The position numbers and the translations under genes were made by a program. From Escherichia phage ECO340P1: 64,000 nt of DNA. Below, piece after piece: positions 9,315 through 34,571 of the stretch. Each line of letters begins with the position of its first letter. Position 1 is the stretch's first letter. The notes beneath the pieces were generated by a model. It was not told where the DNA came from, searched no databases, and saw only the letters and a program-made list of their open reading frames with translations. The stretch is taken from sequence record OP172791. One strand, given 5' to 3'.

Positions 9315-9343
9315 CTTGACAAGCCCAGGGATCGGGCTTATAC
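9315..9343 (+). promoter_or_regulatory. strong sigma70-type promoter reading into non-coding region
   Basis: TTGACA 9315-9320, N17, TATACT 9338-9343; spacer is itself a dyad AGCCC..GGGCT. Confidence 0.6.
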
Positions 9344-9559
9344 TGTTTTACATACAGAAGAGGAAGCGCCACCCCACGGCGTAAAGGCGGGGCTAACATA
9401 CCAGGGGGCACTGGTTGGAAGGTTGATCGCCGGTAGGCTGGGCGCTATATATTTGTAAAGAAATGTAAAGATAAAATAATCGCTTGCTTTCCTGGCTGGA
9501 TCTGTTATTCTTATTACATGGCGAGGGGACACGGGAGCGCGAGACAAACACCGCCCCTG

Positions 9560-9945
9560 CGCGTCATTCTCTAAATGAGAATGATTATCATTTACCTTAT
9601 CAAATAAGAATCAATCTCATTTATAAACCTAAATGCGAATCATTATCATTTGCATTTCCATATGAGAACTCTTCTCATTCTCATCTGCATAAATTTTTGT
9701 AAACTTTAAATTTTGCTTTTGTACTTTCATTTTTGTAAAAGCAAAAAAACTTTAAATACTGTGGGCGCGCAAAATTTTTAAAATTTTCCTTGACTTTTGA
9801 GTTTTGTTTTGTATCTGACATTTTAAGATAATTTTCCTAAACTTTAAATTTTGGTTTTCAACTTTCACTTTTGTAAATTCTTAAAAAGTTTAAATAATTT
9901 GAGGGATTTTTGAGATAATAGGTAATGGGAATTTGAGATAACCTT
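9560..9945. repeat. AT-rich non-coding region with direct repeats (candidate replication origin)
   Basis: ~42 bp direct repeat at 9698-9741 and 9837-9880; ATGAGAATGATTATCATTT-like repeats at 9575-9685; TTTGAGATAA twice at 9909-9941. Confidence 0.45.
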
Positions 9946-10038
9946 TAATCTTATTGGCAGACCTTCAGGAACCCACTCAGATCGAATCCTAGTGATGCAA
10001 ACTGAAAAAGATAAGTGTTTGTATAAGACAAAATAACA

Positions 10039-10070
10039 GGCTCTCTACGGTGCTGTAGGAGCCTTATTTC
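10039..10070. terminator. bidirectional rho-independent terminator
   Basis: GGCTC..GAGCC stem with T-runs on both strands; ends leftward operon after NADAR gene. Confidence 0.55.
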
Positions 10071-10119
10071 TGTGCTACAAAGTGACACCTTTGTTCTAAA
10101 AATGAAAAAAGTTAAAATA

Positions 10120-10662
10120 TCACAAATATCGTCTTTGCGGTATTTTGTCTGGGAAAAGTATTTCGATCAGTTTGTTATGATATTTGCCTAAAAGATTCTG
10201 CCCTTTCCAGGTGGCAGGGTTTAGCACCCCTGGTTCATACATCCCCATTCCAATTCCGTAAACCTTATCGTAGGGGCTTGCTTCAACAAACGTTTTGTAT
10301 TGGTAAAGGTGTAAGTCTGCATACAAATCTGGATTCTGTACATATTTCAAGCATAAACCTCGCATAACAATACGCTCACGGTTCTCTTCCCATACGTTGT
10401 TATCAAAATCCGACACTGCCCTACCCATACGTTTGTAATAAGCTTGTTTCCTCTCGTTGTCACGTATAGTCGAGTGATCAAGGATAGCTGCTGCAATCGC
10501 ATGATCCTTGAACAGCAAAGCCTTACGCCACATCATATATTGCTCAACACAACAGAAAGTCTCATTGTAACCTGGTTCGGTTTCTGTAAAGGGTGCAATA
10601 TACCAATTACTAAAAACATCTTTATGTGAAAAGAAGAATACATAATCATCCGTTATTCGCAT
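10120..10662 (-). CDS. NADAR (DUF1768, YbiA-like) domain protein
   Basis: Motifs FSNW, CVEQYMMWRKALLF, MGR, SPYDKVYGIGMG, WKGQNLLG align with NADAR family pattern. Confidence 0.8.
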   Translation of the reverse strand: MRITDDYVFFFSHKDVFSNWYIAPFTETEPGYNETFCCVEQYMMWRKALLFKDHAIAAAILDHSTIRDNERKQAYYKRMGRAVSDFDNNVWEENRERIVMRGLCLKYVQNPDLYADLHLYQYKTFVEASPYDKVYGIGMGMYEPGVLNPATWKGQNLLGKYHNKLIEILFPDKIPQRRYL

Positions 10663-10837
10663 TTTTCACACTCTCCAAAATTTCACGTTGCCCTTTCTGA
10701 TAGGCTTTCATCAGGACCACTTTAAGGTTTGTCTCCAAAAGATCTTCATTGTAGTTATACCGCTCCACAACATATGTCAATTCATCATAAAGATCAAGAA
10801 CGGGGTAGAATACAGGGTTATCTGCTAAACGTGCCAT
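10646..10837 (-). CDS. hypothetical protein (63 aa)
   Basis: ATG 10837 with SD AAAGGAGAAA; first ATG at 10873 lies inside upstream gene. Confidence 0.45.
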   Translation of the reverse strand: MARLADNPVFYPVLDLYDELTYVVERYNYNEDLLETNLKVVLMKAYQKGQREILESVKNANNG

Positions 10838-10850
10838 AGTTTCTCCTTTG

Positions 10851-11216
10851 TTAATCCATCCACCAGTAGCCATAAACTGCGTCTGCGTCGATGAGTTTGT
10901 GTTTGTTGTTCCGCATGTAGTCTAAGATAAGTAGACGTTTATTGTATCTGGAGAGATTATGACCCTCTTTTCCGCCATAGTCAAAATATTTTGCAAGATC
11001 TTTGCACTCAAACAAAATTAGTTCAGGAGTTTCTTCACACTGGTCTGTCTGGTACACTTGACGAATGATCATGTATACATCGTCGTCTTCCGCTAAATGC
11101 TCTACTGGTCCACATCCAGCAGGAACAAATTCATAGTCCCATCGAATCAGATGTTTCTCTACTGCTTCAAAGAAATCCATCCTTTCGTTGCGCATAATTT
11201 GAACGTCAACTAACAT
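10851..11216 (-). CDS. hypothetical protein (121 aa)
   Basis: ORF with SD ACAGGAGAAAA. Confidence 0.55.
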   Translation of the reverse strand: MLVDVQIMRNERMDFFEAVEKHLIRWDYEFVPAGCGPVEHLAEDDDVYMIIRQVYQTDQCEETPELILFECKDLAKYFDYGGKEGHNLSRYNKRLLILDYMRNNKHKLIDADAVYGYWWMD

Positions 11217-12412
11217 GTTTTCTCCTGTAATGTTCCACCATAAAGTTTATAAATGTTTTGTATTGAGGCCATGCAAGATAACTCTACTGTTTCTGTGTAG
11301 CCATCTGGCATAGCATATTTGCTCACTGCTTCCGTGTGAAGGACACGCTTACAACGCTTCTCTGCATCTTTGCATTGCTTCACAGTAGGGAAGTGCCACA
11401 CTTGGACCTGTTTCATAGTAAACACATTACGACTATTTTGTTTTTTGATACGGCGATCACTATTATTGGCAATTCCAAATTTCAAAGCACAGAGAATACC
11501 TTGTTCATCATGAATGTGGTTAATGTAACATTGTTGTTGTGTCTGGTTAGCACATTGCGGACAACCAGTGCCATGATTTAACAAACCACTGGCACGTCCT
11601 ATTTGTACCCCATGTTTCTTACATCCATATTTAAACTTACCTAATCTTACAGACGGTTTCCCGATCCAACCTACCCAGATATACCCTTTCCTTTCTACTG
11701 CCTTTTTTACCCTATAGGTAATCTGTGCTTCTGTGTAATGACAATTAGTTGCACAACGGCAAGGAATCTTCCCTTGTTTAAGGTCATTCCCTGCGACATA
11801 AAACTTACCATCACACACCCCAGCTTGCACATACTCATCGTGAGAGCAGGCAGGACACTCTACACACCATAAAGAATCGCGGCCTCGTTTTTTATCTGTT
11901 TTAGTGAAGATTGTACCCTCTTTAAACTTTCCTGTATTAATGAAGTCTTGTATGTGCTGATCGTCTGGAAGTATTTTAGAATTCCTAGATCTTTTGTTAC
12001 CGCATTTAGGACAACCACTACCACCCTTAAGATTATGAAATGTTAATGTTCGCCATTCCCCGTGCTCAGGACAAAGGTTGATCATCTTTGTATGTACACC
12101 TATAAACTCTCCATTAATGCCTAAAATCTTGATTCCCTTAGCTTCAGCAATAGGTTTACATTCCGAAAGGTAATAATCTAGGTTTTTACTGTTGTCTTGT
12201 CTTGCTTTCTCATTTTTGCACCTAGGGCAACCAGACTTACCACGTTTAAAATTGGCAAATGTGGATGTTCTCCACTCCCCATGATTAGGGCAGAAGTTGA
12301 TCATCTTCGTGTGCACACCTTTAAATGGCTCTACAATCCCTATAATCTCATATCCTTTAGCTTCCGCTATTGGTTTACATTCTCCTATATACTGTTCTAA
12401 CGTCTTCGCCAT
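11210..12412 (-). CDS. Cys-rich protein with duplicated Zn-ribbon modules, possible homing-endonuclease-like
   Basis: Two repeats ECKPIAEAKG...CPxHGEWRT...GCPxC; C-terminal KFGIANNSDRR resembles T5orf172/GIY-YIG-like motif. Confidence 0.5.
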   Translation of the reverse strand: MAKTLEQYIGECKPIAEAKGYEIIGIVEPFKGVHTKMINFCPNHGEWRTSTFANFKRGKSGCPRCKNEKARQDNSKNLDYYLSECKPIAEAKGIKILGINGEFIGVHTKMINLCPEHGEWRTLTFHNLKGGSGCPKCGNKRSRNSKILPDDQHIQDFINTGKFKEGTIFTKTDKKRGRDSLWCVECPACSHDEYVQAGVCDGKFYVAGNDLKQGKIPCRCATNCHYTEAQITYRVKKAVERKGYIWVGWIGKPSVRLGKFKYGCKKHGVQIGRASGLLNHGTGCPQCANQTQQQCYINHIHDEQGILCALKFGIANNSDRRIKKQNSRNVFTMKQVQVWHFPTVKQCKDAEKRCKRVLHTEAVSKYAMPDGYTETVELSCMASIQNIYKLYGGTLQEKTC

Positions 12413-12456
12413 CTTTATCTATCCTCTCTCCCTATAAGTCTGAAGTCAATATAACA

Positions 12457-12476
12457 AAACCCGCCGAAGCGGGTTT
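12457..12476. terminator. terminator hairpin (internal to leftward operon)
   Basis: AAACCCGC-CGAA-GCGGGTTT followed by T-rich sequence on both strands. Confidence 0.55.
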
Positions 12477-12492
12477 AGTTATTTGTGCTGTA

Positions 12493-13632
12493 TCAGAACA
12501 CGCTACCCAGTGTAGTGGAACGTTGTGTTACAGGCTCCAGCACCACTCGCAGAGTGTTTCCTGGTGTAGTGCTCATCACCAGAATCTTACCACCTTCAAT
12601 CAGATCACAAGTTAGACCATCAGCAGTTGCACACAGATCAATATGTGGATCGCCATCTTCATCCAGGATAACATAACTGTTGGTTTCCATTGCTTCCACT
12701 TCATCATCTTTCAAACTTTGTAGATAGATGTTCAGGGAACAAGCACCCGACAAAAACTTAGTAGGGGTGAAGTCGTGCCAGTTATTGATCCAATTCACCT
12801 TCAAGGTTTTGCCATTAGCTACGATAGAAGCCACATTCCATTTAGCATCGTTCCCTAAAGAAATACCCATCATTTCAAGACATTCTTTAAAAGTCATTTT
12901 TGGATAGAAATTCAATTCTTCTACAATGCCTTGAATAACATCGAAAGACAACTCTGTGCTAACATCCCATAAACGTTGGAAGTTATCTACGTGCTTTTTA
13001 TTTACCAAGTTCTTATCCAAGTAATCTAACATAGTTTCACTAGATAGTTTATCGTAATTGAAACTGTAGTAGATACGACTAGGACGGTTTACAAAATATT
13101 CCGAGATATAGCCACTATTTTTAGTGAGGATGTAAAGTTTATTCCCACTTCCTGTTCCATCCAACAAGGTCAACAGTGCTTCCTGATCTTCTTTCTTAGC
13201 GTACACTTTATCAAATTCGTCAAATAAAACAACAGCACGATCTGTAATTTTACTCATAAATTCTAAGAAGCCAGCATCTGTGTAAGGCTGTGTAACCAAA
13301 ATGGTTGGAATACCTAAACCTTCTGTGGACATTAGAGACATGCTAATCAGTTTAGCTAACATCGTCTTACCACTGCCCTTTGTCCCTGTCAGTAACACCC
13401 CAGTATTTTTACCTTCTTTACTACGACGAGCAAATGTTTTAATAACATGTGCGGCGCGGTCTTTAGTTTCCCCATAAAGAGTGTTCGGAAGAGAGAAACT
13501 TTCGCCACGCACTAAAGAGTAGTTACCGTGCGGATCGCAGTTGACAACCCAAACTCCAGCAGGAAGTTTATTAGCTTCAACACCATATTCCTTATTTACA
13601 ACAGCCACATCTCCAAAAATAGTGTATTTCAT
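12493..13632 (-). CDS. AAA+ ATPase
   Basis: Walker A GTKGSGKT and Walker B VVLFDEFD; unknown C-terminal domain. Confidence 0.65.
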   Translation of the reverse strand: MKYTIFGDVAVVNKEYGVEANKLPAGVWVVNCDPHGNYSLVRGESFSLPNTLYGETKDRAAHVIKTFARRSKEGKNTGVLLTGTKGSGKTMLAKLISMSLMSTEGLGIPTILVTQPYTDAGFLEFMSKITDRAVVLFDEFDKVYAKKEDQEALLTLLDGTGSGNKLYILTKNSGYISEYFVNRPSRIYYSFNYDKLSSETMLDYLDKNLVNKKHVDNFQRLWDVSTELSFDVIQGIVEELNFYPKMTFKECLEMMGISLGNDAKWNVASIVANGKTLKVNWINNWHDFTPTKFLSGACSLNIYLQSLKDDEVEAMETNSYVILDEDGDPHIDLCATADGLTCDLIEGGKILVMSTTPGNTLRVVLEPVTQRSTTLGSVF

Positions 13633-13988
13633 TAGAACGTTTCTCCTTTTAAAATAATTACTGTAAACTTTGCAGTTTTTTCACTCTTAATATTCTTGAC
13701 TAATAAGTACTCTCCTCCAGGGGCATCTTTGTATTGTTTAATAGCTACTATTTCATTTTTGCAAGTAGCTATAATCGAATAAAAAGGACGTTCCGTGTTA
13801 TCTTCTTTTCCTGTATATGCCTCAACATCTTGGCACTCTTCCAGAACACCATTTCCAGGTGTATAGTAAAATTTGTTGCCTGTGATCACAACATCTTTAC
13901 CAATATCTGTTTTAACTGCTACAAATTTTTGAGCGTAAGTGGTGAAGCTTACGGTAGCCAGCAATGTGGCTAAGATTAGTTTTTTCAT
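13632..13988 (-). CDS. secreted or periplasmic protein (118 aa)
   Basis: ATG 13988 with SD GGAGGGAAG; signal peptide MKKLILATLLATVSFTTYA. Confidence 0.55.
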   Translation of the reverse strand: MKKLILATLLATVSFTTYAQKFVAVKTDIGKDVVITGNKFYYTPGNGVLEECQDVEAYTGKEDNTERPFYSIIATCKNEIVAIKQYKDAPGGEYLLVKNIKSEKTAKFTVIILKGETF

Positions 13989-13999
13989 AAACTTCCCTC

Positions 14000-14164
14000 C
14001 TATTCCCACAACATACAAATCGCAGCGATAAACATATTAGCAATAGCCGCACCAAGAACTATAAACATCGCCAGTTCTGAACAATATTCACCAACCAGAG
14101 GAGATACTATTGCACAAAGTAGTCCCAATGTCAAACACAAATTGATGATGAAGTTTAAAATCAT
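14000..14164 (-). CDS. small membrane protein (54 aa)
   Basis: Unlisted ORF with SD AAGGAGAGAAT; two hydrophobic segments. Confidence 0.4.
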   Translation of the reverse strand: MILNFIINLCLTLGLLCAIVSPLVGEYCSELAMFIVLGAAIANMFIAAICMLWE

Positions 14165-14173
14165 ATTCTCTCC

Positions 14174-14338
14174 TTACAACCAACCCTTTGCCTGGTAGCC
14201 TTTAGAAAATCCATTTTCCCATTCTTCGAATTCCTTTTTGTGTGTCATTGGACAGTATGGATTTACTTTATTAAACATACCAAACTTGAACCCTGCGGTA
14301 TACCCTTTCTTAAAAGCTATTGATTCTAAAGAGATCAT
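14174..14338 (-). CDS. hypothetical protein (54 aa)
   Basis: ATG 14338 with SD AAGAGGAGAAA (track start is TTG). Confidence 0.45.
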   Translation of the reverse strand: MISLESIAFKKGYTAGFKFGMFNKVNPYCPMTHKKEFEEWENGFSKGYQAKGWL

Positions 14339-14351
14339 ATTCTTTCTCCTC

Positions 14352-14603
14352 TTAGAACTCGACAATGATTTTGTCTAAGTGTTCTGCTTCAACTTGGGAT
14401 AATGTTAACACCTGCACCAAACCTCTGTCAATGCCTAATTTGATCACTTGCAAATAATCACCGAAAAGATCAGAGATTTCAATCTGGTGTTCAGTAACCA
14501 CCACGACCTCGTTACCCTTGGTATACTCTCTCCAGATTCGTCCACACTTGTAAATGAAATCTTTCTGGTCTTCACTGATCATCTTAGGCTTAACGCTTAA
14601 CAT
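14352..14603 (-). CDS. hypothetical protein (83 aa)
   Basis: ORF with SD GGGAG; TAATG overlap with upstream gene. Confidence 0.55.
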   Translation of the reverse strand: MLSVKPKMISEDQKDFIYKCGRIWREYTKGNEVVVVTEHQIEISDLFGDYLQVIKLGIDRGLVQVLTLSQVEAEHLDKIIVEF

Positions 14604-14941
14604 TACATACTCCCGTATTCTGGTTCAATATTATGTTTACGACAAATGGTATCCCAACGTTCATTACCAAAACTTCTTCCATGTAGAGCGTTAAATGCGA
14701 AATGCTCTGCCAACCACAATACTACATCATCAGGATCTGTGTCAAGAGGAATTCTAAACTCTCGATCATAACGCATACGCAGAATAAAATCCTTATCATC
14801 TTCAAGGAGATACATGTGACTTTTAGCCCGTGATGCCAAATCAAAGAAAGGAGGCTCATCTTTCCAAACGTGACGCTCAACTTCAACACCATGATCAACT
14901 ACCAGAGTAGCGATCACCTCTCTCATTTCTTTACTAAACAT
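14603..14941 (-). CDS. hypothetical protein (112 aa)
   Basis: ATG 14941 with SD GGAGGT (track start is TTG). Confidence 0.55.
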   Translation of the reverse strand: MFSKEMREVIATLVVDHGVEVERHVWKDEPPFFDLASRAKSHMYLLEDDKDFILRMRYDREFRIPLDTDPDDVVLWLAEHFAFNALHGRSFGNERWDTICRKHNIEPEYGSM

Positions 14942-14951
14942 ATTACCTCCA

Positions 14952-15128
14952 TTAACCAATTAGTTCAACTGCTTTGCAGATGTAGATCCAAACCGGAGTG
15001 AGCATAAGAGCTATACCGAATGCACAATTCCACTTAATTCCCATTTCCTCTATTAGAGACATGATTAAGCCAACAGCACTAATAATCAAATAGATCCCTA
15101 AGAAAGCCATTGTGAAGAATTCAGACAT
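14952..15128 (-). CDS. small membrane protein (58 aa)
   Basis: ATG 15128 with SD TGGAG; hydrophobic. Confidence 0.45.
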   Translation of the reverse strand: MSEFFTMAFLGIYLIISAVGLIMSLIEEMGIKWNCAFGIALMLTPVWIYICKAVELIG

Positions 15129-15130
15129 AT

Positions 15131-15487
15131 TTAACTCCAAAGATTATCAAAATAACTAGCGAATAAAAGACGGCCCTCTAATCGTGCCTTCCTTTGATCT
15201 TCAGCATACACGATTTCTGGATTACCACTATCAATAAAAGCATTCTCCATCTTTTCTAAAATATTTAACCACTCTCTTCTACCTGTCTCCTCTTCTTCAT
15301 CTGTATACGGCGCACTTCTATTTGGATACAAAACACGCATCAGTTTAGTGGGGATCATGACAAACGTGCTATTGTTTGCCTTCTCACGGAAGGCTTTAAT
15401 TCCTGCATAGATTACCTTCCCCAAAGCTGCATCCAAATCCATCAGGTCACTTTCTTCTATTTGAATTTCATCGTGTACAATTTTCAT
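15131..15487 (-). CDS. hypothetical protein (118 aa)
   Basis: ORF with SD GGGAGAAGG; ATGA overlap upstream. Confidence 0.55.
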   Translation of the reverse strand: MKIVHDEIQIEESDLMDLDAALGKVIYAGIKAFREKANNSTFVMIPTKLMRVLYPNRSAPYTDEEEETGRREWLNILEKMENAFIDSGNPEIVYAEDQRKARLEGRLLFASYFDNLWS

Positions 15488-15771
15488 CGTGCCTTCTCCC
15501 GATCTGCATCTAATTTCAACAAGAAAGCTGTATACTCTTCCGAACCTTGGTGTAAAAACATGTGATAAGAGCTTACCAGTTTCTTCGTTGTCGTATAACG
15601 TTCCATTTCCCCAACAACACCTCCACCTAGTGTGTAGAGCACAATACCTTCAACTCCAACATGTGTTACTACTTCAACCAAATCTGTGTTATCCCAATAG
15701 TAGTTAGGTGACACAATAAGATCGCCCACTGCCAGTTTAATGTTTGCTACTTCATCTTGTGAATAATACAT
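15484..15771 (-). CDS. hypothetical protein (95 aa)
   Basis: ATG 15771 with SD AGAGAGGAGAA. Confidence 0.5.
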   Translation of the reverse strand: MYYSQDEVANIKLAVGDLIVSPNYYWDNTDLVEVVTHVGVEGIVLYTLGGGVVGEMERYTTTKKLVSSYHMFLHQGSEEYTAFLLKLDADREKAR

Positions 15772-15808
15772 TTGGTTCTCCTCTCTTAATTGATGGAAAT
15801 AGTATACC

Positions 15809-16300
15809 TTACCACATAATCTCGCGCAACTCTTTTTCTTCTTTAAAATTACGTAAGTTTTCCAGTGCACGATTTAGGTCTTCTTCCGTCTCTGCTTTCT
15901 GGACTTTTTCCATTATTTTCGCAACAATATTTTTCTTAACTTGCAAATCTGGAACAGGCATACGTTTTTCCATTTCATAAGCTTCTCGTTTATGACGTTC
16001 CTCCATCTCTGCTTTTTCTTTCACCCAATCCGCCTCGTCCATTGCACCTTTGCAGACACAAGTGTAACCTTTAATAGTATAATCCCCATGTTCAATACCA
16101 GGTTGAAGAGCTAAGGCTTCATTACCACAATACGCGCACAACGGACGACCTGGCATTTTCAAAGTTTTGGTAGCCTTAGCGCCACATTGACTATCCCAGC
16201 TTGTTTTATAACTGGAACCGTTGTCTCCGTGAGAACGACCAACCAAGAAGTTACGGAAGAAACCCATAGCACGTTCGTCAATGTAATCAGGGTAAGCCAT
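15809..16300 (-). CDS. hypothetical Cys-containing protein (163 aa)
   Basis: ORF with SD AAAGGAGAA; CAYCG and CVCKG motifs. Confidence 0.55.
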   Translation of the reverse strand: MAYPDYIDERAMGFFRNFLVGRSHGDNGSSYKTSWDSQCGAKATKTLKMPGRPLCAYCGNEALALQPGIEHGDYTIKGYTCVCKGAMDEADWVKEKAEMEERHKREAYEMEKRMPVPDLQVKKNIVAKIMEKVQKAETEEDLNRALENLRNFKEEKELREIMW

Positions 16301-16312
16301 TATATTCTCCTT

Positions 16313-16606
16313 TCACATTAAGACACGTTTTGTGTCGATGGGTGCATTATCAAACATGTTAAGAACATTGTCAAGCAGTTTTACTAATTCCTTTGTAATT
16401 TGTTCTTTTGAACGGGAGGAAGTGAGCACTTTGCTTTCACCAACGATATGCATAACTTTTATAGGAGCGTCTAAAATGATGTTGTGTTGACGATCCTCTT
16501 CAAAAGAAGCCAACCATTTCTCATTGTTACCGTGCAAGGCTACAATCACACCAAAACCGTTAATTGTTTCGGAAATATTTTTAGTTGCTAAAGTAATGTT
16601 CATCAT
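16313..16606 (-). CDS. hypothetical protein (first gene of leftward operon; start 16606 or 16603)
   Basis: ORF with SD AGAGAGG; promoter TTGATC-N16-TATCAT upstream. Confidence 0.5.
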   Translation of the reverse strand: MMNITLATKNISETINGFGVIVALHGNNEKWLASFEEDRQHNIILDAPIKVMHIVGESKVLTSSRSKEQITKELVKLLDNVLNMFDNAPIDTKRVLM

Positions 16607-16631
16607 CTACCTCTCTTGTTAATGTTCATAC

Positions 16632-16659
16632 ATGATACCTGAAAATAATTTCAGATCAA
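16632..16659 (-). promoter_or_regulatory. sigma70-type promoter for leftward operon 16606 to 10120
   Basis: TTGATC, N16, TATCAT on minus strand. Confidence 0.5.
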
Positions 16660-16662
16660 GTA

Positions 16663-16690
16663 TTGACATACTTTTTAATCTTGTTAAGAT
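16663..16690 (+). promoter_or_regulatory. sigma70-type promoter for rightward block starting 16721
   Basis: TTGACA 16663-16668, N16, TAAGAT 16685-16690; divergent from minus promoter. Confidence 0.6.
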
Positions 16691-16720
16691 CAACTCCTAC
16701 CAAACAAAAGGAGAAAACAA

Positions 16721-17164
16721 ATGCAAAACATCCAAAACATCAAACTGACTTGGCCCGAAGCTAAAGAAGCAATGAAGGAAGGTAGACGTGTTGAGCACCG
16801 CCATTTTTGTGGTGGCGAATGGTTTGAGATGCGAGATGGTGTTATTCTCGACGAACAAGGTTATAACATGGAAACTTGGTTCAGAGGGGAAGCTTGGCAG
16901 GAAGAGGGTTGGTCTGTAATTGAAAAAGAAGACAGTAAGGAAGAAGGCGTGTTGTCTAATGTAGAACGCGAGATGAGGGAAACAAAGATACCTGCTTTGG
17001 ATTTTGTATACCTGGAAGAACTTGTGGCAGCATCTTTTGTAGCAGGAAATCTTTGGAATACACCTGTTAGCCGACTGGAGAACCAAAATAACCCATCTGC
17101 TCGTAATCACAAGCTTTATAAGGGTAAAGGTCACAACAAATTAAAGAAAGGAAAGAAGAAATGA
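16721..17164 (+). CDS. protein with N-terminal DUF2829-like (Tad2-like) motif and basic tail
   Basis: SD AAAAGGAGAAAA; N-terminus LTWPEAKEAMKEGRRVEHRHF..GEW resembles DUF2829 pattern; Lys-rich C-terminus. Confidence 0.5.
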   Translation: MQNIQNIKLTWPEAKEAMKEGRRVEHRHFCGGEWFEMRDGVILDEQGYNMETWFRGEAWQEEGWSVIEKEDSKEEGVLSNVEREMRETKIPALDFVYLEELVAASFVAGNLWNTPVSRLENQNNPSARNHKLYKGKGHNKLKKGKKK

Positions 17165-17307
17165 TCTACAAAAACAAGTTCACTGGTTGTCTCCGTAAAT
17201 TTATCGATAAGAAAGGGTATGTTTCTCTTGACAACGGGGCTACATGGATAGAGAATGGTGCTTCAGAACAATTGATCAAAGCTTTGCCTTACTACGAGGA
17301 GGTTTAA
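17161..17307 (+). CDS. small hypothetical protein (48 aa)
   Basis: Unlisted ORF with SD AAGGAAAG; ATGA overlap; ends 1 nt before next ATG. Confidence 0.4.
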   Translation: MIYKNKFTGCLRKFIDKKGYVSLDNGATWIENGASEQLIKALPYYEEV

Positions 17308-17631
17308 ATGTCAAACAGCCTGTTTAGCGTGTCAATTGCACCACGTGTCAACATCCGTTGTCAGTTTGTTACTTTACCTGGTGTAACGCATATCACATTA
17401 GAATACGATCCTCGTTCACGAGAGAACCCAATTACAGGTAAGATTGATTCAGCCTACGGCGACTTCCTGATGGATCACCAAGCGATCTTATGTTGTGTGC
17501 AACGCTTACAGGCAGGGTCTTTATACATCTTTAAGAAGTCTGTGTTCCAAGAAATTGCTCAAGCAGTTGAAAGCGGTATGGAGACTCTTAACGCTATGAT
17601 TGAAGCAGCCAACAAGAAGGAGGTTTTATGA
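17308..17631 (+). CDS. hypothetical protein (107 aa)
   Basis: ORF with SD GAGGAGG. Confidence 0.55.
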   Translation: MSNSLFSVSIAPRVNIRCQFVTLPGVTHITLEYDPRSRENPITGKIDSAYGDFLMDHQAILCCVQRLQAGSLYIFKKSVFQEIAQAVESGMETLNAMIEAANKKEVL

Positions 17632-29103: not shown

Positions 29104-29760
29104 ATGACTATTAAACATATCTCTTTTGATGTATGGAACACACTGATCACAGCAAACTCCAATTACGCAGACATGCGAGCCTGGACTATCGCAAAATATG
29201 GAGATATTACGGAAGTGGAAGCAAGAGCAGCTTATAAAAAGATCAAAAAGGAACTGGATAATGCAGCACTTCAAGGCAAAGCCGAGTGTGCAGCATACGC
29301 CTGGGAAAGACTTGGTTCTGAACTTGGGATAACACCTTGGAAGTCTGCAAAGCTTCGTTTCGAGTGTGAACAGTGGTTCCTTAAGTTTCCACCACACGTA
29401 GCCGTGGATCTGCCGATGTACTTGTTGTATCTTTCGGGGCGTTATGATTTGAGTATTAAGAGTAATACCAACTTCATATCAGGGGATATCCTGCGTCGTG
29501 CTTGTAAGTTTGATAGTTGGAATTGTTTTGAGTTCACCCATTTCTCGGATGAAGCTTTACTTTGTAAACCAGATCCGCGATTCTTTGCTCGCACGCTCAC
29601 GTATTCTCCGATCCCTCTGTTAGGGCACGAAGTATTGCACGTAGGAGATAGTGAAGAATATGATGGGAAATGTGTTGACTTAGGATTTAACTTCTGTCAT
29701 ATTAAGAACCCTAACGACTTACTAGAGAAACTTAAAAGAGGAGAAATTGTAAATGCGTAA
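29104..29760 (+). CDS. HAD-superfamily hydrolase-like protein
   Basis: N-terminal ISFDVWNTL (HAD motif I variant) and C-terminal LHVGDSEEYDGKCVDLG. Confidence 0.6.
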   Translation: MTIKHISFDVWNTLITANSNYADMRAWTIAKYGDITEVEARAAYKKIKKELDNAALQGKAECAAYAWERLGSELGITPWKSAKLRFECEQWFLKFPPHVAVDLPMYLLYLSGRYDLSIKSNTNFISGDILRRACKFDSWNCFEFTHFSDEALLCKPDPRFFARTLTYSPIPLLGHEVLHVGDSEEYDGKCVDLGFNFCHIKNPNDLLEKLKRGEIVNA

Positions 29761-30580
29761 TCAAACTCAAATTTTTGCAAATAAATTTGATGACCTGGAA
29801 GCTGCTACTTTTGATATCCAAGATTATTCAAAATTGAAATTTGGTAGTAACCAAGCTGCGCGTCGTATGGGTAAAGAATTGGCACTTCAGTTTTTTGCTC
29901 AAGTGGCAATGAAACATATTGGGGAACAATTTGTTATCATTCCTTCTCCTTACAACCATGTGCATAATGCTGCAACAATGATGACAGATCATTTTATTAA
30001 TTACTTTAATATGTTGCAATCACAATATGATCAAGGTCGTTCAGCAGAACTGGATATTATTCATCGTAAAGTTAGCTATATCAACGATTATGGTTTCTTG
30101 GATAAAGCTAGTCGTAAGAAACTTATTGATGGGGATACATTCTACTGCAACAAAGAATTCTGGGGTGATAAGAAGCTTGTGTTTATTGATGATGTAAATA
30201 TCACTGGAACTCATGAAGACAAACTGATTGAGATCCTTGATGAAAATCAAGTTAAAAATGATGTTTACTTCCTGTATTTTGCAAAATATGAAGGTAATCA
30301 AGCAGATACCGAAGCTAAACTGAATTTTAACTACATTAATACACCGGAAGCGTTTGTTAAAATGATTAATGAAGAACGTGATGCACAGTGTCTTGTTCGT
30401 CCTATTAAGTATCTTATGGGCCAAAATCATGAAGACTTCAAAATCATTCTTAGCCAATTGCCACATTACTATGTAGAGCAACTTTTCTTTGGATGCTTGG
30501 GAGAAGGTTACAACCGAATTTCAAAGTATGCTGAAAACTTTGAATTCTTGGATCGTTACACAAAACAACACATTCTGTAA
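29753..30580 (+). CDS. phosphoribosyltransferase (PRTase type I fold) protein
   Basis: PRPP-binding signature KLVFIDDVNITGTHE. Confidence 0.65.
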   Translation: MRNQTQIFANKFDDLEAATFDIQDYSKLKFGSNQAARRMGKELALQFFAQVAMKHIGEQFVIIPSPYNHVHNAATMMTDHFINYFNMLQSQYDQGRSAELDIIHRKVSYINDYGFLDKASRKKLIDGDTFYCNKEFWGDKKLVFIDDVNITGTHEDKLIEILDENQVKNDVYFLYFAKYEGNQADTEAKLNFNYINTPEAFVKMINEERDAQCLVRPIKYLMGQNHEDFKIILSQLPHYYVEQLFFGCLGEGYNRISKYAENFEFLDRYTKQHIL

Positions 30581-30593
30581 TAAGGAGCTAAAA

Positions 30594-31067
30594 ATGCTTA
30601 AAATGAAAACAGGTAATCTTATTGATGCCGCTAAAGCAGGTGAAGTAACTGTTATTGCTCATTGTTGCAACTGTATGTGTAATATGGGGGCAGGTATTGC
30701 CCCACAAATCAAACAAGCATTTCCTTACGCATATGCAGCAGACTTAGACACAATGGCTGGTGATCAAAGTAAACTAGGTTGTTTTAGTTTAGGGGTGCCA
30801 GACGAACAATCAGACCCTTTGGTATATAATCTATACGGGCAATACCGTTACGGATACAATGCTAAAGGTCGTCAGTTGGACTATGATGCACTTTACGATG
30901 CACTAATAGCTATGGCTAACGATTTGCTTCTCCGTGACCAAAAATGTAAGATCGGCTTACCTATGATTGGCGCTGGATATGCTGGAGGTAATTGGGCTAT
31001 CATCCAAGTGATGATTGAAGAAACTTTAGTAAAAACAGGTCACGATGTGACTATTTATAAACTTTAA
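30594..31067 (+). CDS. macro domain (ADP-ribose binding/processing) protein
   Basis: ATG 30594 with SD TAAGGAG; motifs VIAHCCNCMCNMGAGIA and LPMIGAGYAGGNW. Confidence 0.6.
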   Translation: MLKMKTGNLIDAAKAGEVTVIAHCCNCMCNMGAGIAPQIKQAFPYAYAADLDTMAGDQSKLGCFSLGVPDEQSDPLVYNLYGQYRYGYNAKGRQLDYDALYDALIAMANDLLLRDQKCKIGLPMIGAGYAGGNWAIIQVMIEETLVKTGHDVTIYKL

Positions 31068-31079
31068 GAGGAGATTAGT

Positions 31080-31301
31080 ATGGGTGTTTTTGCAGGTATT
31101 GTTGCAGTGGTAAGCTTTTTTGTTATTGCTTTTATGCTTAGTTTGATTCCAGCTTGGTTACTGTTGCTGGCTTACAACTATGTTGCTGAAGTTATGGGTC
31201 ATGCAGATATCACTGTCCCAGTAACCTTCTGGACCGTGGTTTGTGTTTCGTTTATTCTGGCTGTATTACGAGGAATCTTTTCCTCTCATTCAACAAAATA
31301 A
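31080..31301 (+). CDS. small membrane protein (73 aa)
   Basis: SD AAGAGGAG; two predicted transmembrane segments. Confidence 0.5.
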   Translation: MGVFAGIVAVVSFFVIAFMLSLIPAWLLLLAYNYVAEVMGHADITVPVTFWTVVCVSFILAVLRGIFSSHSTK

Positions 31302-31304
31302 GTG

Positions 31305-31363
31305 TTGACATAGTTCTTAAAAAGAGTAAGATATATCACATGAAGCGGGGAATAGTTCCCCGC
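31305..31363 (+). promoter_or_regulatory. promoter-hairpin cassette (plus-strand copy) for TerC gene
   Basis: TTGACA 31305-31310, N16, TAAGAT 31327-31332, hairpin GCGGGGAA-TAG-TTCCCCGC 31345-31363, then SD GAGAGGAGAAAAG. Confidence 0.6.
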
Positions 31364-31380
31364 AAAGAGAGGAGAAAAGA

Positions 31381-32355
31381 ATGCAACTTGGTTTCCCAAT
31401 TATTGATGTAGTTGTTTTAGTTGGTATTTTAGCATTGTCTATTGGTATTGATTTCTTTGGTCACAAAGAAAATAAAGAAATTTCATTCAAATCCGCAGTT
31501 GGTTGGTCGATCTTTTGGATTGGTGTATCATTAGCTTATTATGGTTTTGTATACTTCCAACATGGTGCCGATTTTGCTAACTTGTTTTTAAGTGGATATG
31601 TGTTGGAAAAATCTTTGTCGGTAGATAACTTGGTAGTATTTGTAGCAGTATTCGCAAGTTTTGGTATTAAAAGCACACACTTGCAGCACAAAATTCTACT
31701 TTGGGGTATTGCAGGTGCGATTGTCTTCCGAGGTGTGTTTGTAGCAGTAGGCACTTACTTGTTAAGTTTGGGCTGGTATGTTAATATCTTCTTCGGTGCG
31801 GTCATCCTTTTCTGTGCAGCTAAAATGGTATTTGCTGGAGATAATGACGCAGAAGTTGATTACTCTAAACACTGGGCTACCCGTATTGTTCGTAAACTGT
31901 TCCCTGTATCTAATAAAATGGATGGGGAGAAGTTCTTCACAATCGAAAATGGTGTTCGTGTAGCAACTCCAGCTTTGGTTTGCGTATTCGTGATGGAAAT
32001 GGTTGATGTAATCTTTGCAGTAGATTCTGTTCCGGCAGTGATCGCAGTAACACAAGAACCTCTGCTTGTATTCTCTTCGATGTTATGTGCAATCTTAGGT
32101 CTACGTGCTCTGTTCTTTGTTCTTAGTGTTGCACTGAAGTATCTGGTTCACTTGGAGAAAGCAGTTATTGTGGTTCTGGTGTTTGTAGGTGTTAAACTAA
32201 TGTATCACCCGTTTGCAGAAACGTTACATGAAAAAATGAGCTTCCTGCCAGCGCACATTGATCCAACTATTAGTATGTATATTGTCCTGGGCACATTAGC
32301 TCTTGGTGTTATTGCAAGCTTTATCTTCCCTGAAAAAGAAGAAGCTACTGTTTAA
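31381..32355 (+). CDS. TerC-family integral membrane protein
   Basis: Multiple TM segments; motifs VLEKSLSVDNLVVF and EMVDVIFAVDSVPAVIAV; own promoter-hairpin cassette; terminator downstream. Confidence 0.8.
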   Translation: MQLGFPIIDVVVLVGILALSIGIDFFGHKENKEISFKSAVGWSIFWIGVSLAYYGFVYFQHGADFANLFLSGYVLEKSLSVDNLVVFVAVFASFGIKSTHLQHKILLWGIAGAIVFRGVFVAVGTYLLSLGWYVNIFFGAVILFCAAKMVFAGDNDAEVDYSKHWATRIVRKLFPVSNKMDGEKFFTIENGVRVATPALVCVFVMEMVDVIFAVDSVPAVIAVTQEPLLVFSSMLCAILGLRALFFVLSVALKYLVHLEKAVIVVLVFVGVKLMYHPFAETLHEKMSFLPAHIDPTISMYIVLGTLALGVIASFIFPEKEEATV

Positions 32356-32361
32356 TAAATG

Positions 32362-32386
32362 AGCCTCCTTCGGGAGGCTATTTTAT
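32362..32386 (+). terminator. rho-independent terminator after TerC gene
   Basis: AGCCTCC-TTCG-GGAGGCT followed by ATTTTAT. Confidence 0.7.
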
Positions 32387-32397
32387 AGGAGAGATTT

Positions 32398-32748
32398 ATG
32401 AGTAATTTTGATGAAATTCAAGAACTTGTTTGGGATTTATCTGGTGATGTGGATTACATTTCAGATTATCTTTCAAAAGTTTACCCTGGGGTAAGCGTTA
32501 TGATTGTGACCAAAGATCCAATTAATTTGCCTCCTAATGTTGTAGCTTGTTGTGGAAGTGGTTCAGGAGAAGTAGAGCCTGTATCTCGTTGGGAATTAAC
32601 TAAAGCTGTTTCAAAACGAAACGGTGAAGTTTTGAATATTGATATTGAGCAAATATGGACTTCTCCAGCAGCCAAATGGAATGATCCAAATGGTTGGGAT
32701 TTGTTCTTCTGGGATAATGAGACTGATGATGAGGTGTTTTTAAAATGA
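32398..32748 (+). CDS. hypothetical protein (116 aa)
   Basis: ORF with SD AGGAGAG. Confidence 0.55.
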   Translation: MSNFDEIQELVWDLSGDVDYISDYLSKVYPGVSVMIVTKDPINLPPNVVACCGSGSGEVEPVSRWELTKAVSKRNGEVLNIDIEQIWTSPAAKWNDPNGWDLFFWDNETDDEVFLK

Positions 32749-32990
32749 AATACTTGTTGGTTGTGTTTGAAAATATCTGTTTTGCAATAGGGTTGTTTGT
32801 TGTAATTTTTGTATTGACAAGCGTAATCAACGGCAGTAAAGTGAGTTTATACCGAGATGGAGAGCAACTTTATTGCTTCTCTGGAGATTTCAAACACAGA
32901 TGTATTAATAGCCAAAACGAGGAAAGCAAATATGAAAAAACTAGCCCTGATTTTAATTGGTTGTATCTTTTTAACAGCTTGCGAGGATGA
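32745..32990 (+). CDS. possible small membrane protein (overlaps next gene by 59 nt)
   Basis: ORF with SD GAGGTG and hydrophobic segment; overlap makes it doubtful. Confidence 0.3.
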   Translation: MKYLLVVFENICFAIGLFVVIFVLTSVINGSKVSLYRDGEQLYCFSGDFKHRCINSQNEESKYEKTSPDFNWLYLFNSLRG

Positions 32991-33369
32991 AACAAATCCT
33001 GCACAATACCAACAACCTCCTCAACAATACGCTCAACAAGGATCTGACGGAGATACAACTATTATCAACAATGGTGGCGGTTCTAGTAGTAGCGGTGTTG
33101 GTGAGTTTGCTACAGGTATGTTGTTAGGGCATATGATGAGTGGCGGTAGTAATCGTAGCAGTGGGGATTATAACGATAACAGAACGATTATTAATAAGCA
33201 TTATAATACACCTAAACCGAAAACTAATTTTTATGGTAAGCCTAAACAAGAGATAAAAACTTATGAAAAGCCGAGACAAACTTTTAAAACAAATAGTAGC
33301 TATACAACTCGTAAATCTTACAATAGCCCTTTAAGTAAAAAGAGTTCATCTCGTAGCAAGCGACGTTAA
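32932..33369 (+). CDS. lipoprotein with Gly/Ser-rich region
   Basis: ATG 32932 with SD GAGGAAAG; signal peptide plus lipobox LTAC; glycine-zipper-like GEFATGMLLGHMMSGG. Confidence 0.6.
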   Translation: MKKLALILIGCIFLTACEDETNPAQYQQPPQQYAQQGSDGDTTIINNGGGSSSSGVGEFATGMLLGHMMSGGSNRSSGDYNDNRTIINKHYNTPKPKTNFYGKPKQEIKTYEKPRQTFKTNSSYTTRKSYNSPLSKKSSSRSKRR

Positions 33370-33383
33370 TAAGGAGAAAAACA

Positions 33384-33977
33384 ATGACAATTTCTATTCG
33401 TACTTCCATTACAGGTGTTAAAAGTTTGCCTAATGCTTTGCAAATCACACGTGCTTTGAGGGATACGTTCTCTGCTGTGGATGAGCATAAGATGCTCGAT
33501 AATCTCTCAAATTGGCCCTATTTTCATTATTTTAAAAATGAAGACGACGAGTTTATAGACGCTGTTTCTTACGGTTATGATTTCGGTAAGGAGGTTTCTC
33601 CTGAAGAATTTGTAGCTATGGTGTTCCCAAACGGTTTGCCTACTCGCAGTAAACGTAAAAAAGGACCAAAAAACAAGAAACGTGCTACTAATAAAGCTAC
33701 CATTTTCTTTACTGATGGCACACAATATACGATTAAAGATTTTGAAGAGGTATCTTATACAGCAGGTGGGAGTCTTTCTTTCTACACCATCAAAAAACAA
33801 AACTATACGTTCAGCCATGTTTCTAACATGATTGAAATGTTAGTAGAAGATATTGAAAGCGTGGCTGTGTTAGGTATGCATAAAAGCTTTTTAATTACAA
33901 ATATTTCAGATTTCAGTGCAAGTTTATCTGGCCCTGATTTTGAAGCCACGACCACGCATTTCGCTTTTAAGGTGTAA
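33384..33977 (+). CDS. hypothetical protein (197 aa)
   Basis: ORF with SD TAAGGAGAAAA; basic stretch RSKRKKGPKNKKR. Confidence 0.55.
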   Translation: MTISIRTSITGVKSLPNALQITRALRDTFSAVDEHKMLDNLSNWPYFHYFKNEDDEFIDAVSYGYDFGKEVSPEEFVAMVFPNGLPTRSKRKKGPKNKKRATNKATIFFTDGTQYTIKDFEEVSYTAGGSLSFYTIKKQNYTFSHVSNMIEMLVEDIESVAVLGMHKSFLITNISDFSASLSGPDFEATTTHFAFKV

Positions 33978-33980
33978 GTT

Positions 33981-34571
33981 ATGCATACCGAGAGAGACTT
34001 GCAACTCTTGTGGTGGGAAGTGATGCAGGAAATAAAAGAAGATTTTCCTGTTTACTACAACATGTTACGTGAAGCAGGATATAAAGCTTGTGTTAGAAAC
34101 AAAGTGAATAACTCTTTCGGTTGGTGCAACTACCGAGATAAAATTGTTGTTGTAAATTGGCACTTGCATAAGAACTCCACAAGAGATATGATCGTGGATA
34201 CAATGAAGCACGAAATTGCTCATGCTATTGATGGTTGTATGGGTAAGTTTAGTAGGCACGGTGCTCATTGGCAAAAACTGGCAGCAGAATTAGGGGCTAA
34301 TCCTAAAGCCACTTCCAAAGAGCCGTTGAACCACGAATATAAATATGTTCTTGTTCTGGTAGATAGGTTTGCGACAAGATGTGTTAGAGGTTATAATCGT
34401 AAACCTAATCGCATGTACCCAGGTAAGCAACCTAATATGTGGTTGAAATCAGATAAAGAAGGGACCGAAGGAAAATTATGGTTGTATAAATGGGACGATT
34501 GGGTTAAAGTAGCTAAAGAGTACGGTGTTTCACCATATATAAGAGATGCAGAAGAGGAGAATGAAGAATGA
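33981..34571 (+). CDS. SprT-like zinc metallopeptidase domain protein
   Basis: HExxH motif in context MKHEIAHAIDG. Confidence 0.6.
   Translation: MHTERDLQLLWWEVMQEIKEDFPVYYNMLREAGYKACVRNKVNNSFGWCNYRDKIVVVNWHLHKNSTRDMIVDTMKHEIAHAIDGCMGKFSRHGAHWQKLAAELGANPKATSKEPLNHEYKYVLVLVDRFATRCVRGYNRKPNRMYPGKQPNMWLKSDKEGTEGKLWLYKWDDWVKVAKEYGVSPYIRDAEEENEE

Follow-up and report, generated by a model that had tools for sequence, protein, structure and literature searches.

A NADAR-domain protein of Escherichia phage ECO340P1, a positional orthologue of AdfN-Bas60 by sequence and synteny, is a probable anti-DarTG1 factor

Results

A NADAR gene ends a leftward unit of ECO340P1

We analysed a stretch of 64,000 nucleotides from Escherichia phage ECO340P1 (sequence record OP172791; the whole stretch is referred to here as the window) and centred the analysis on the gene at 10120-10662, which encodes a protein with a NADAR domain. 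The region around this gene shares 97% identity with Phapecoctavirus genomes, vB_EcoM_DE16 and UP17 among them, and 92% with phAPEC8; these are all phAPEC8-like myoviruses that infect E. coli and belong to the subfamily Stephanstirmvirinae. The features of the locus, given in the 5' to 3' order of the minus strand, are as follows:

12493-13632, minus strand: AAA ATPase (Pfam/PHROG)
11210-12412, minus strand: CapR/DUF723/T5orf172-like endonuclease-like protein of 400 amino acids (Pfam and PHROG)
10851-11216, minus strand: small ORF without assigned function (ORF list)
10646-10873, minus strand: small ORF without assigned function (ORF list)
10663-10680, minus strand: ribosome-binding site of the NADAR gene, GGAGAG with an 8-nt spacer (direct sequence reading)
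10120-10662, minus strand: NADAR-domain protein, putative orphan ADP-ribosylglycohydrolase of the AdfN-Bas60 type (ORF, Pfam NADAR, fold matches and identity to bas60_0111)
10028-10064, minus strand: intrinsic terminator of the leftward unit, GGCUCCUAC-AGCACC-GUAGAGAGCC followed by UGUUAUUUUGU

The NADAR gene is an intact ORF of 180 amino acids with an ATG start, preceded on its strand by the AAA ATPase gene, the endonuclease-like gene and the two small ORFs. Its start overlaps the 3' end of the nearer small ORF (10646-10873) by 17 nt, which suggests that the two are translationally coupled. At 10040-10064, ~55 nt past the NADAR stop codon, the sequence forms a GC-rich hairpin with a U-run behind it; the folding z-score of the hairpin was -4.4, and an equally good fold was obtained in none of 200 shuffled sequences. 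Moreover, the phAPEC8 record carries an ARNold terminator annotation at the equivalent site, ~56 nt past its own NADAR orthologue. Given this terminator and the phAPEC8 annotation, NADAR is the last gene of the leftward unit, as a preliminary description of the sequence had stated. At the other end, a second terminator-like hairpin was found upstream of the endonuclease-like gene (12457-12476), and so the unit may begin only at ~12412. A promoter consensus scan of positions 11200-17600 yielded 17 matches, compared to 16.5 expected from shuffled sequence, and in view of this lack of excess such matches cannot fix where the unit starts.

Downstream of NADAR lies a gap of ~800 nt that is poor in ORFs and rich in repeats, in which Rfam gave one sub-threshold chance match only, and so a known RNA was rejected as its content. 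The order of ATPase, endonuclease-like gene, NADAR and gap is kept in the phages muut, Bas60, DE16 and phAPEC8. A search with ARAGORN found no tRNA genes anywhere in the 64,000-nt window. Pfam and PHROG assignments of the neighbouring genes, i.e., the AAA ATPase, the CapR/DUF723 protein and the small ORFs, revealed no ADP-ribosyltransferase (ART) or DarT gene beside NADAR, and with no such toxin gene adjacent to it, we regard the ECO340P1 NADAR as an orphan.

The protein matches the NADAR superfamily in sequence and predicted fold

The NADAR superfamily corresponds to Pfam PF08719 (DUF1768, COG3236), and membership was decided by the curated profile threshold. The ECO340P1 protein matched Pfam NADAR with an E-value of 1.8e-35 and 123 bits (cutoff 35.1), the alignment joining residues 11-161 of the protein to positions 3-154 of the 163 positions of the model, nearly its whole length. 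It also scored 114 bits against NCBIfam TIGR02464 (cutoff 73.7) and matched phrog_1017 with an E-value of 7e-51. The preliminary description had assigned the protein to the NADAR/YbiA-like family along its whole length, to be given up if a NADAR profile match were absent; Pfam, NCBIfam and PHROG each returned one, and the match does extend along the protein.

An AlphaFold2 model, built from an alignment of 69 sequences, reached a mean pLDDT of 95 and a pTM of 0.88, and is predicted to adopt the alpha+beta fold of NADAR proteins, a helical core flanked by small beta-hairpins. A Foldseek search of this model against the PDB gave significant matches to two structures only, 8BAU (TM 0.79), the NADAR of Phytophthora nicotianae (PnNADAR) with ADP-ribose, and 2B3W (TM 0.68), E. 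coli YbiA. Taken together, these profile and fold matches are far beyond chance and confirm the NADAR identity of the gene product.

The protein groups by sequence with the stand-alone NADARs

The superfamily comprises four families: the stand-alone NADARs, the YbiA-type, the T4-type phage NADARs and DarG1 (PMC12945103). A family profile built on the ECO340P1 protein scored 124 bits (E=6e-35) against PnNADAR and 61 bits against YbiA, and retrieved no DarG1 structure at E<=1. The families also differ at a catalytic position, E125 of PnNADAR, which is occupied by Asp in DarG1 and by His in the T4-type enzymes (Schuller et al., PMC11543638); the ECO340P1 protein has Glu127 there, within the motif FVEASPYD. 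By these sequence measures the protein belongs to the stand-alone, Glu-type family, together with PnNADAR, SCO5665 of S. coelicolor and the NADAR of the sigma-70 operon of pathogenic E. coli, all of which, like the ECO340P1 protein, are Glu-type and of a single domain. This family provides both its best sequence match and its best structural match (124 bits and TM 0.79, respectively). It differs from this family in being encoded by a phage, and from PnNADAR in carrying Tyr135 in place of W133 and in lacking an insertion of that protein, with the second matched stretch shifted by ~25 residues.

DarG1, the antitoxin of DarTG1 (E. coli C7, G. lovleyi), shares the fold family and, by analogy, probably the chemistry, i.e., removal of ADP-ribose from the N2 of guanine, and the ECO340P1 protein may be functionally analogous to it as a neutralizer of DarT1. 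Unlike DarG1, however, it has no adjacent DarT gene, its domain begins at about residue 4 without the basic N-terminal extension, its catalytic Glu lies at residue 40 rather than at 88 (E. coli C7, in the numbering of PMC11543638), and it has Glu127 instead of the Asp specific to DarG1 (D171 in C7; PMC11543638). Membership in the DarG1 (BC4488) subfamily was rejected on the missing DarT1 neighbour, the Glu in place of Asp and the missing basic extension, and thus the antitoxin function proposed here is DarG1-like by analogy while the protein is not a DarG1 subfamily member. PADLOC matched the ECO340P1 protein only to PDC-M42C, a generic NADAR candidate-defence model, and matched T4 AdfN to nothing; as its DarG model is of the macro type, this tool is uninformative on DarG1 membership.

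AdfN of T4 (AdfN-T4, gp30.3) shares the superfamily and a proposed role as an orphan anti-DarTG1 protein that removes ADP-ribose from guanine. The two proteins showed no significant similarity (BLASTP E=3.9; hhalign probability 10%), which places them in separate clades, and AdfN-T4 has the T4-type His where the ECO340P1 protein has Glu127. Membership in the gp30.3 clade was rejected on these grounds. YbiA of K-12, which has the same fold (TM 0.68) and is Glu-type, was 29% identical over 96 residues, about half of the protein, and phmmer with the ECO340P1 protein did not find 2B3W at E<=0.01. Since Glu at the E125 position is common to the YbiA-type and the stand-alone family, it does not discriminate between them; it was the bit scores (61 to YbiA, 124 to PnNADAR) and the low identity over 96 amino acids that led us to reject YbiA as the closest affinity. 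YbiA is reported to be active on guanine-linked ADP-ribose (G-ADPr) in vitro, but is encoded by a chromosomal gene in an operon reported to be under LexA control and does not protect cells from DarT1 (Cihlova et al.). The DS-32 NADAR anti-phage protein (NCBIfam NF053876) was also rejected as an identity, at 16 bits against a cutoff of 240.

The predicted active site is conserved and the gene is under purifying selection

We aligned the ECO340P1 protein to PnNADAR (8BAU) and took the residue roles from Schuller et al. (PMC11543638). Eight residues of PnNADAR bind ADP-ribose or are catalytically relevant, E43, K50, R79, W89, R93, E125, D130 and W133 (Schuller et al., Mol Cell 2023, PMC11543638). 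The first seven correspond to E40, K47, R81, W91, R95, E127 and D132 of the ECO340P1 protein, respectively, and the eighth to Y135, the sole mismatch and a conservative one (Trp to Tyr). We infer from this mapping that E40, K47, R81, W91, R95, E127, D132 and Y135 form the active site. None of E40, K47, W91, E127 and D132 varies among 70 homologues, and the conservation of R81 is 90% or higher. The superfamily has a catalytic Glu and a phosphate-binding Lys seven residues apart; here they are E40 and K47, the same spacing as E43/K50 in PnNADAR and E88/K95 in C7 (Schuller et al., PMC11543638), and as E36/K43 in T4, a likeness to AdfN-T4.

The gene was found at 80% identity or more in ~70 Phapecoctavirus records (tblastn), and a version 57-58% identical in 56 records of the Justusliebigvirus type (megablast, with the muut orthologue as query). 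Its dN/dS by the Nei-Gojobori method was 0.05-0.18 among Phapecoctavirus orthologues (0.05 for ECO340P1 against DE16 and 0.17 against phAPEC8), and ~0.08 for phAPEC8 against Bas60, the sole cross-genus pair with an estimable dS, which nears saturation. These data demonstrate that the gene is under purifying selection in Phapecoctavirus, and by sequence it is a conserved, selected component of this phage lineage. Residues 34-72 form a more divergent, mosaic segment among Phapecoctavirus alleles. Positive selection was rejected as its cause, as synonymous changes are clustered in the same segment, and this joint clustering of synonymous and other substitutions indicates a recombination tract. 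The protein is thus real and conserved and, judging from its residues, very probably an active enzyme.

AdfN-Bas60 is a positional orthologue by sequence and synteny

Published work on phage NADARs bears directly on this gene. The NADAR of T4, gp30.3 (AdfN), frees phage DNA of ADP-ribose and defeats DarTG1 (Johannesman, Carlson and LeRoux; bioRxiv 2024, PMC11257639; Nat Commun 2025, PMC11825919), and the same authors assayed two unrelated NADARs of other phages, including one from the BASEL phages Bas60-62 (PMC11257639, PMC11825919), which are phi92-like phages of the sister clade of the phAPEC8 group (BASEL paper). AdfN-Bas60 was named an anti-DarT factor NADAR (Johannesman et al., Nat Commun 2025, PMC11825919), and its clade is distinct from the YbiA-like housekeeping group. 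Its expression from a plasmid neutralized DarT1 in uninfected cells; with it, the DarTG1-sensitive phages RB69, T5 and Bas25 regained full titre on DarTG1 hosts, and DarTG2 was unaffected (PMC11825919). AdfN-T4 works only during T-even infection, whereas AdfN-Bas60 neutralizes DarT1 alone (Johannesman et al., PMC11825919). The evidence on AdfN-Bas60 is one of sufficiency by ectopic expression only (PMC11825919), and we found no deletion of the gene from its native phage in these reports (PMC11257639, PMC11825919). Among phage NADARs, removal of guanine-linked ADP-ribose or rescue from DarT1 has been shown only for AdfN-Bas60, AdfN-Bas32 and AdfN-T4 (PMC11825919).

We located the AdfN-Bas60 gene as bas60_0111 (QXV83846.1) in Escherichia phage PaulScherrer/Bas60 (MZ501100), a Justusliebigvirus. 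Its product is 58% identical to the ECO340P1 NADAR over 172 amino acids (E=1e-68), falls in the same length class and shares the catalytic residues, among them the Glu of the FVEASPYD motif. Its gene likewise follows an AAA ATPase gene and a large endonuclease-like gene and precedes a non-coding gap, in a phage of the same subfamily, Stephanstirmvirinae. The differences are that the host phages belong to sister genera (Justusliebigvirus and Phapecoctavirus), that ECO340P1 has two extra small ORFs between the endonuclease-like gene and NADAR, and that its protein has a deletion of seven residues before the catalytic Glu (gaps of 1 and 6 amino acids) and a different C-terminal tail. Sequence and synteny together demonstrate that the two are positional orthologues. 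The proposal of the preliminary description, that the protein reverses DarT-type ADP-ribosylation of guanine as counter-defence, is supported by analogy with this 58%-identical, syntenic orthologue. Our literature search found no paper pairing Phapecoctavirus, or this protein, with sensitivity to DarTG1 or DarTG.

A macro-domain gene lies at a separate locus of the window

The preliminary description had further noted a macro-domain protein in the same phage:

30594-31067, plus strand: macro-domain protein of 157 amino acids, SCO6735/TARG1/DarG type, homologue of T4 Tk.4 (AdfM) (Pfam, PDB and PADLOC)

This gene is indeed present. Its product matched Pfam Macro with 22.4 bits, just above the cutoff of 22, and among PDB structures matched S. 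coelicolor SCO6735 (5E3B, E=3.5e-12), then TARG1 and the DarG macrodomain of T. aquaticus; it also matched the DarG model of PADLOC (E=4e-10) and was 36% identical to T4 Tk.4 (E=1e-20). In the alignment, the 'KK' and 'LDR' residues of TARG1 have no equivalents in the ECO340P1 protein, as is the case in SCO6735. SCO6735, TARG1 and DarG2 are listed as erasers of thymidine-linked ADP-ribose (table in PMC12945103). T4 Tk.4, named AdfM, is required for T4 growth on DarTG2 hosts (2025 preprint, 10.1101/2025.11.20.689424), and the anti-DarTG2 evidence for macrodomains of the Tk.4 type is genetic and concerns T4 tk.4 only (10.1101/2025.11.20.689424).

The macro gene occupies a locus of its own on the opposite strand, at a distance of 20 kb from NADAR, and the two genes are not transcribed together. 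Genes for a ComF-like PRTase (PRTase_3) and a HAD-like hydrolase immediately precede the macro gene, and TerC, SprT-like and TelA genes follow it, a neighbourhood that fits a role in small-molecule metabolism equally well. In light of this distance, strand and set of neighbours (PRTase, HAD, TerC, TelA), the macro protein is a plausible, though less certain, second enzyme of counter-defence. The idea that the phage has two ADP-ribose-processing enzymes therefore holds in part: both genes are real and the AdfN/AdfM pair of T4 provides a precedent, whereas the macro gene is unlinked and its part in counter-defence is the less secure one. More generally, the joint occurrence of Macro and NADAR domains in DNA viruses is above chance, and NADAR is carried by 27% of myoviruses (2022 survey of viral NAD/ADPr systems).

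Discussion

The explanation that we consider probable, by analogy with AdfN-Bas60, is that the ECO340P1 NADAR is an AdfN-type anti-DarTG1 factor, an active N-glycosidase that cleaves ADP-ribose from guanine on phage DNA. According to this proposal, the gene would encode an active single-domain NADAR N-glycosidase; DarT1-type ADP-ribosyltransferases of the host would modify guanine of DNA during infection, and the phage enzyme would cleave the bond that links ADP-ribose to guanine N2, a removal that would restore replication of the phage genome. In doing so it would act as an orphan antitoxin, as AdfN of the Bas60 type does. The activity of AdfN-Bas60 is thus carried over by analogy to its ECO340P1 orthologue, acting presumably in its native phage. 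The specificity of the ECO340P1 enzyme could differ from that of AdfN-Bas60, given the 42% divergence between them and the mosaic segment at residues 34-72. All four NADAR families tested hydrolysed guanosine-ADPr in vitro (Cihlova et al.), and YbiA and T4 gp30.3 hydrolysed G-ADPr in vitro without rescuing cells from DarT1 (Cihlova et al.; Johannesman et al., PMC11257639), and so activity in vitro does not guarantee protection of cells.

A different or broader nucleic-acid target, with ADP-ribose removed also or mainly from cytidine or from RNA bases, would direct the enzyme against ADP-ribosyltransferases other than DarT1, for example pierisin/ScARP-like toxins or defence enzymes yet to be described. 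Glu127 stands where DarG1 has Asp and T4-type NADARs have His, the family profile is nearest to PnNADAR (124 bits; YbiA, 61 bits) and retrieves no DarG1 structure, and those members of the Glu-type NADAR and YbiA families that were tested act on cytidine-linked ADP-ribose as well, removing it from both DNA and RNA (PMC12945103). Nevertheless, E. coli is not known to have a defence system that modifies cytidine, the orthologue AdfN-Bas60 already has a DarT1 phenotype, and the E167D and E167Q variants of SCO5665 were inactive on both substrates, so that the Glu position did not explain base selectivity; we rate this reading unlikely as a rival explanation. A broader substrate range, plausible in itself, would add to the anti-DarTG1 explanation rather than exclude it. 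A tentative version of this idea, which we regard as possible though doubtful, follows from the placement in the Glu-type stand-alone family instead of the DarG1 or T4 type: the NADAR would be a broad-spectrum eraser of ADP-ribose on guanine and cytosine of DNA and RNA, complementing a Tk.4-like macrodomain acting on thymine-ADPr. If true, eraser and macrodomain together would give Stephanstirmvirinae near-complete cover against base-ADP-ribosylating defences, including undiscovered enterobacterial ones.

The remaining readings take the enzyme away from host-modified DNA. Degradation of soluble ADP-ribose-derived molecules, such as TIR/Thoeris-type signals or other NAD-derived toxins, is suggested by the anti-TIR gene Atd1 known in these phage genera; however, NADARs are not known to act on such signals, the 2022 survey is older than NADAR biochemistry, and the nearest relative to have been tested functions within a system of DNA ADP-ribosylation, which leaves this reading very improbable. 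We give hardly more than passing credence to a housekeeping N-glycosidase that, like YbiA, would clear reactive intermediates of the riboflavin pathway. The riboflavin-fusion domain model TIGR02464 does score above its cutoff, and several GenBank records bear the names 'GTP cyclohydrolase II' or 'YbiA-like N-glycosidase', but the former label derives from RibA-NADAR fusions and the ECO340P1 protein has no RibA domain. Furthermore, K-12 YbiA is only 29% identical over 96 residues with the profile far nearer to PnNADAR, no riboflavin genes were seen among the scanned neighbours, and the Bas60 clade falls outside the YbiA-like housekeeping group (Johannesman et al., PMC11825919). Finally, large myoviruses often carry ARTs together with erasers (2022 survey of viral NAD/ADPr systems), and the NADAR could reverse or tune marks of an ADP-ribosyltransferase of the phage itself, for self-protection or regulation; an ART domain was found in none of the 19 window proteins scanned with Pfam (a minor part of the window and of a genome that extends ~86 kb beyond it), and we consider this the most remote of the readings.

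The anti-DarTG1 explanation, which we retain, describes a known kind of enzyme. Counter-defence by phage NADARs (AdfN) and the pairing of NADAR and macrodomain in T4 (AdfN and AdfM) are already published, and as the concept, the enzyme class and the pairing are all in the literature, our analysis adds no new mechanism. Instead, it offers a functional name, by analogy, of AdfN-type anti-DarTG1 NADAR for a gene found in ~70 Phapecoctavirus and 56 Justusliebigvirus GenBank records, most of which label it 'hypothetical protein', 'GTP cyclohydrolase II' or 'YbiA-like N-glycosidase'. Phages of the phAPEC8 type are frequent isolates as candidates for therapy and biocontrol. They probably carry countermeasures to both DarTG1 and DarTG2, which would aid the prediction of their host range. 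While it will come as no surprise to the specialist, the result is thus of use for the annotation of these genomes and for host range.

Mosaic structure and start of the NADAR gene

The NADAR gene (10120-10662, minus strand) was found to be mosaic, its divergent stretch spanning window positions 10445-10580 (codons ~28-72). Nucleotide identity to the related Phapecoctavirus phAPEC8 was 70-77% over codons 41-80 and 98-100% over codons 81-120. Since synonymous and non-synonymous changes cluster at the same place, the pattern indicates that this segment is an intragenic recombination tract.

At the gene's start (10646-10662), codon 2 is CGA in ECO340P1 and apparently AGA in its relative DE16. The CGA codon abolishes the ATGA start/stop overlap, so that the upstream small ORF is 13 nt longer and its overlap with NADAR grows from 4 to 17 nt.

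Several GenBank records (ABPW7, EF1-1, Mt1B1_P17, AV123 and KMB37) name the NADAR orthologue 'GTP cyclohydrolase II', a label that originates in RibA-NADAR fusions; a RibA domain is absent from the protein encoded at 10120-10662. In one further record, that of Eryne, the feature under the NADAR match reads 'DNA methyltransferase'. The host labels of MG065650.1 ('Campylobacter phage B15') and OP562383.1 ('Acinetobacter phage vB_AbaM_ABPW7') look doubtful; both genomes are 97% identical to this coliphage window.

Upstream gene and intergenic hairpin

The following larger gene is kept directly 5' of the NADAR gene in Phapecoctavirus and Justusliebigvirus alike:

11210-12412, minus strand: 400-aa protein with three CapR-homology stretches and DUF723 zinc-ribbon-like repeats

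Its product also has a weak C-terminal match to T5orf172/MUG113 and carries the PHROG label 'endonuclease'; a putative homing-endonuclease-like gene lies directly upstream of the mosaic NADAR gene. Between this gene and that of the AAA ATPase, a perfect 8-bp GC-rich hairpin was identified at 12457-12476 (AAACCCGC-NNNN-GCGGGTTT); T-rich tails flank it on each strand. As a candidate bidirectional terminator, this hairpin would divide the 'leftward operon', the run of minus-strand genes that ends with NADAR.

Repeats downstream of the NADAR terminator

On the 3' side of the NADAR terminator, a gap of ~800 nt (9320-10120) with few ORFs contains several repeat families:

9571-9679: three repeat units with 29-nt spacing
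9572-9593 / 9602-9623: 22-nt inverted repeat within the three-unit array
9692-9763 and 9830-9901: 72-nt repeat pair, 82% identical
9692, 9782 and 9830: 29-nt repeat trio

An Rfam search of the gap returned no match, and a 'repeat_region' is annotated at the equivalent place in the records of phages muut and tuntematon. Possible readings of these repeats are an array of iterons or promoters, a regulatory region or an origin.

Surroundings of the macro-domain gene

The macro-domain gene lies within a cluster of its own:

29104-35680, plus strand: Ter-type cluster holding the macro-domain gene

The order of genes in it is HAD-like hydrolase, ComF-like PRTase_3, macro, TerC, three uncharacterised ORFs, SprT-like and TelA, a content that suggests a nucleoside-like metabolite pathway or a stress response. 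Such a pathway or response might be the real context of the macro protein.
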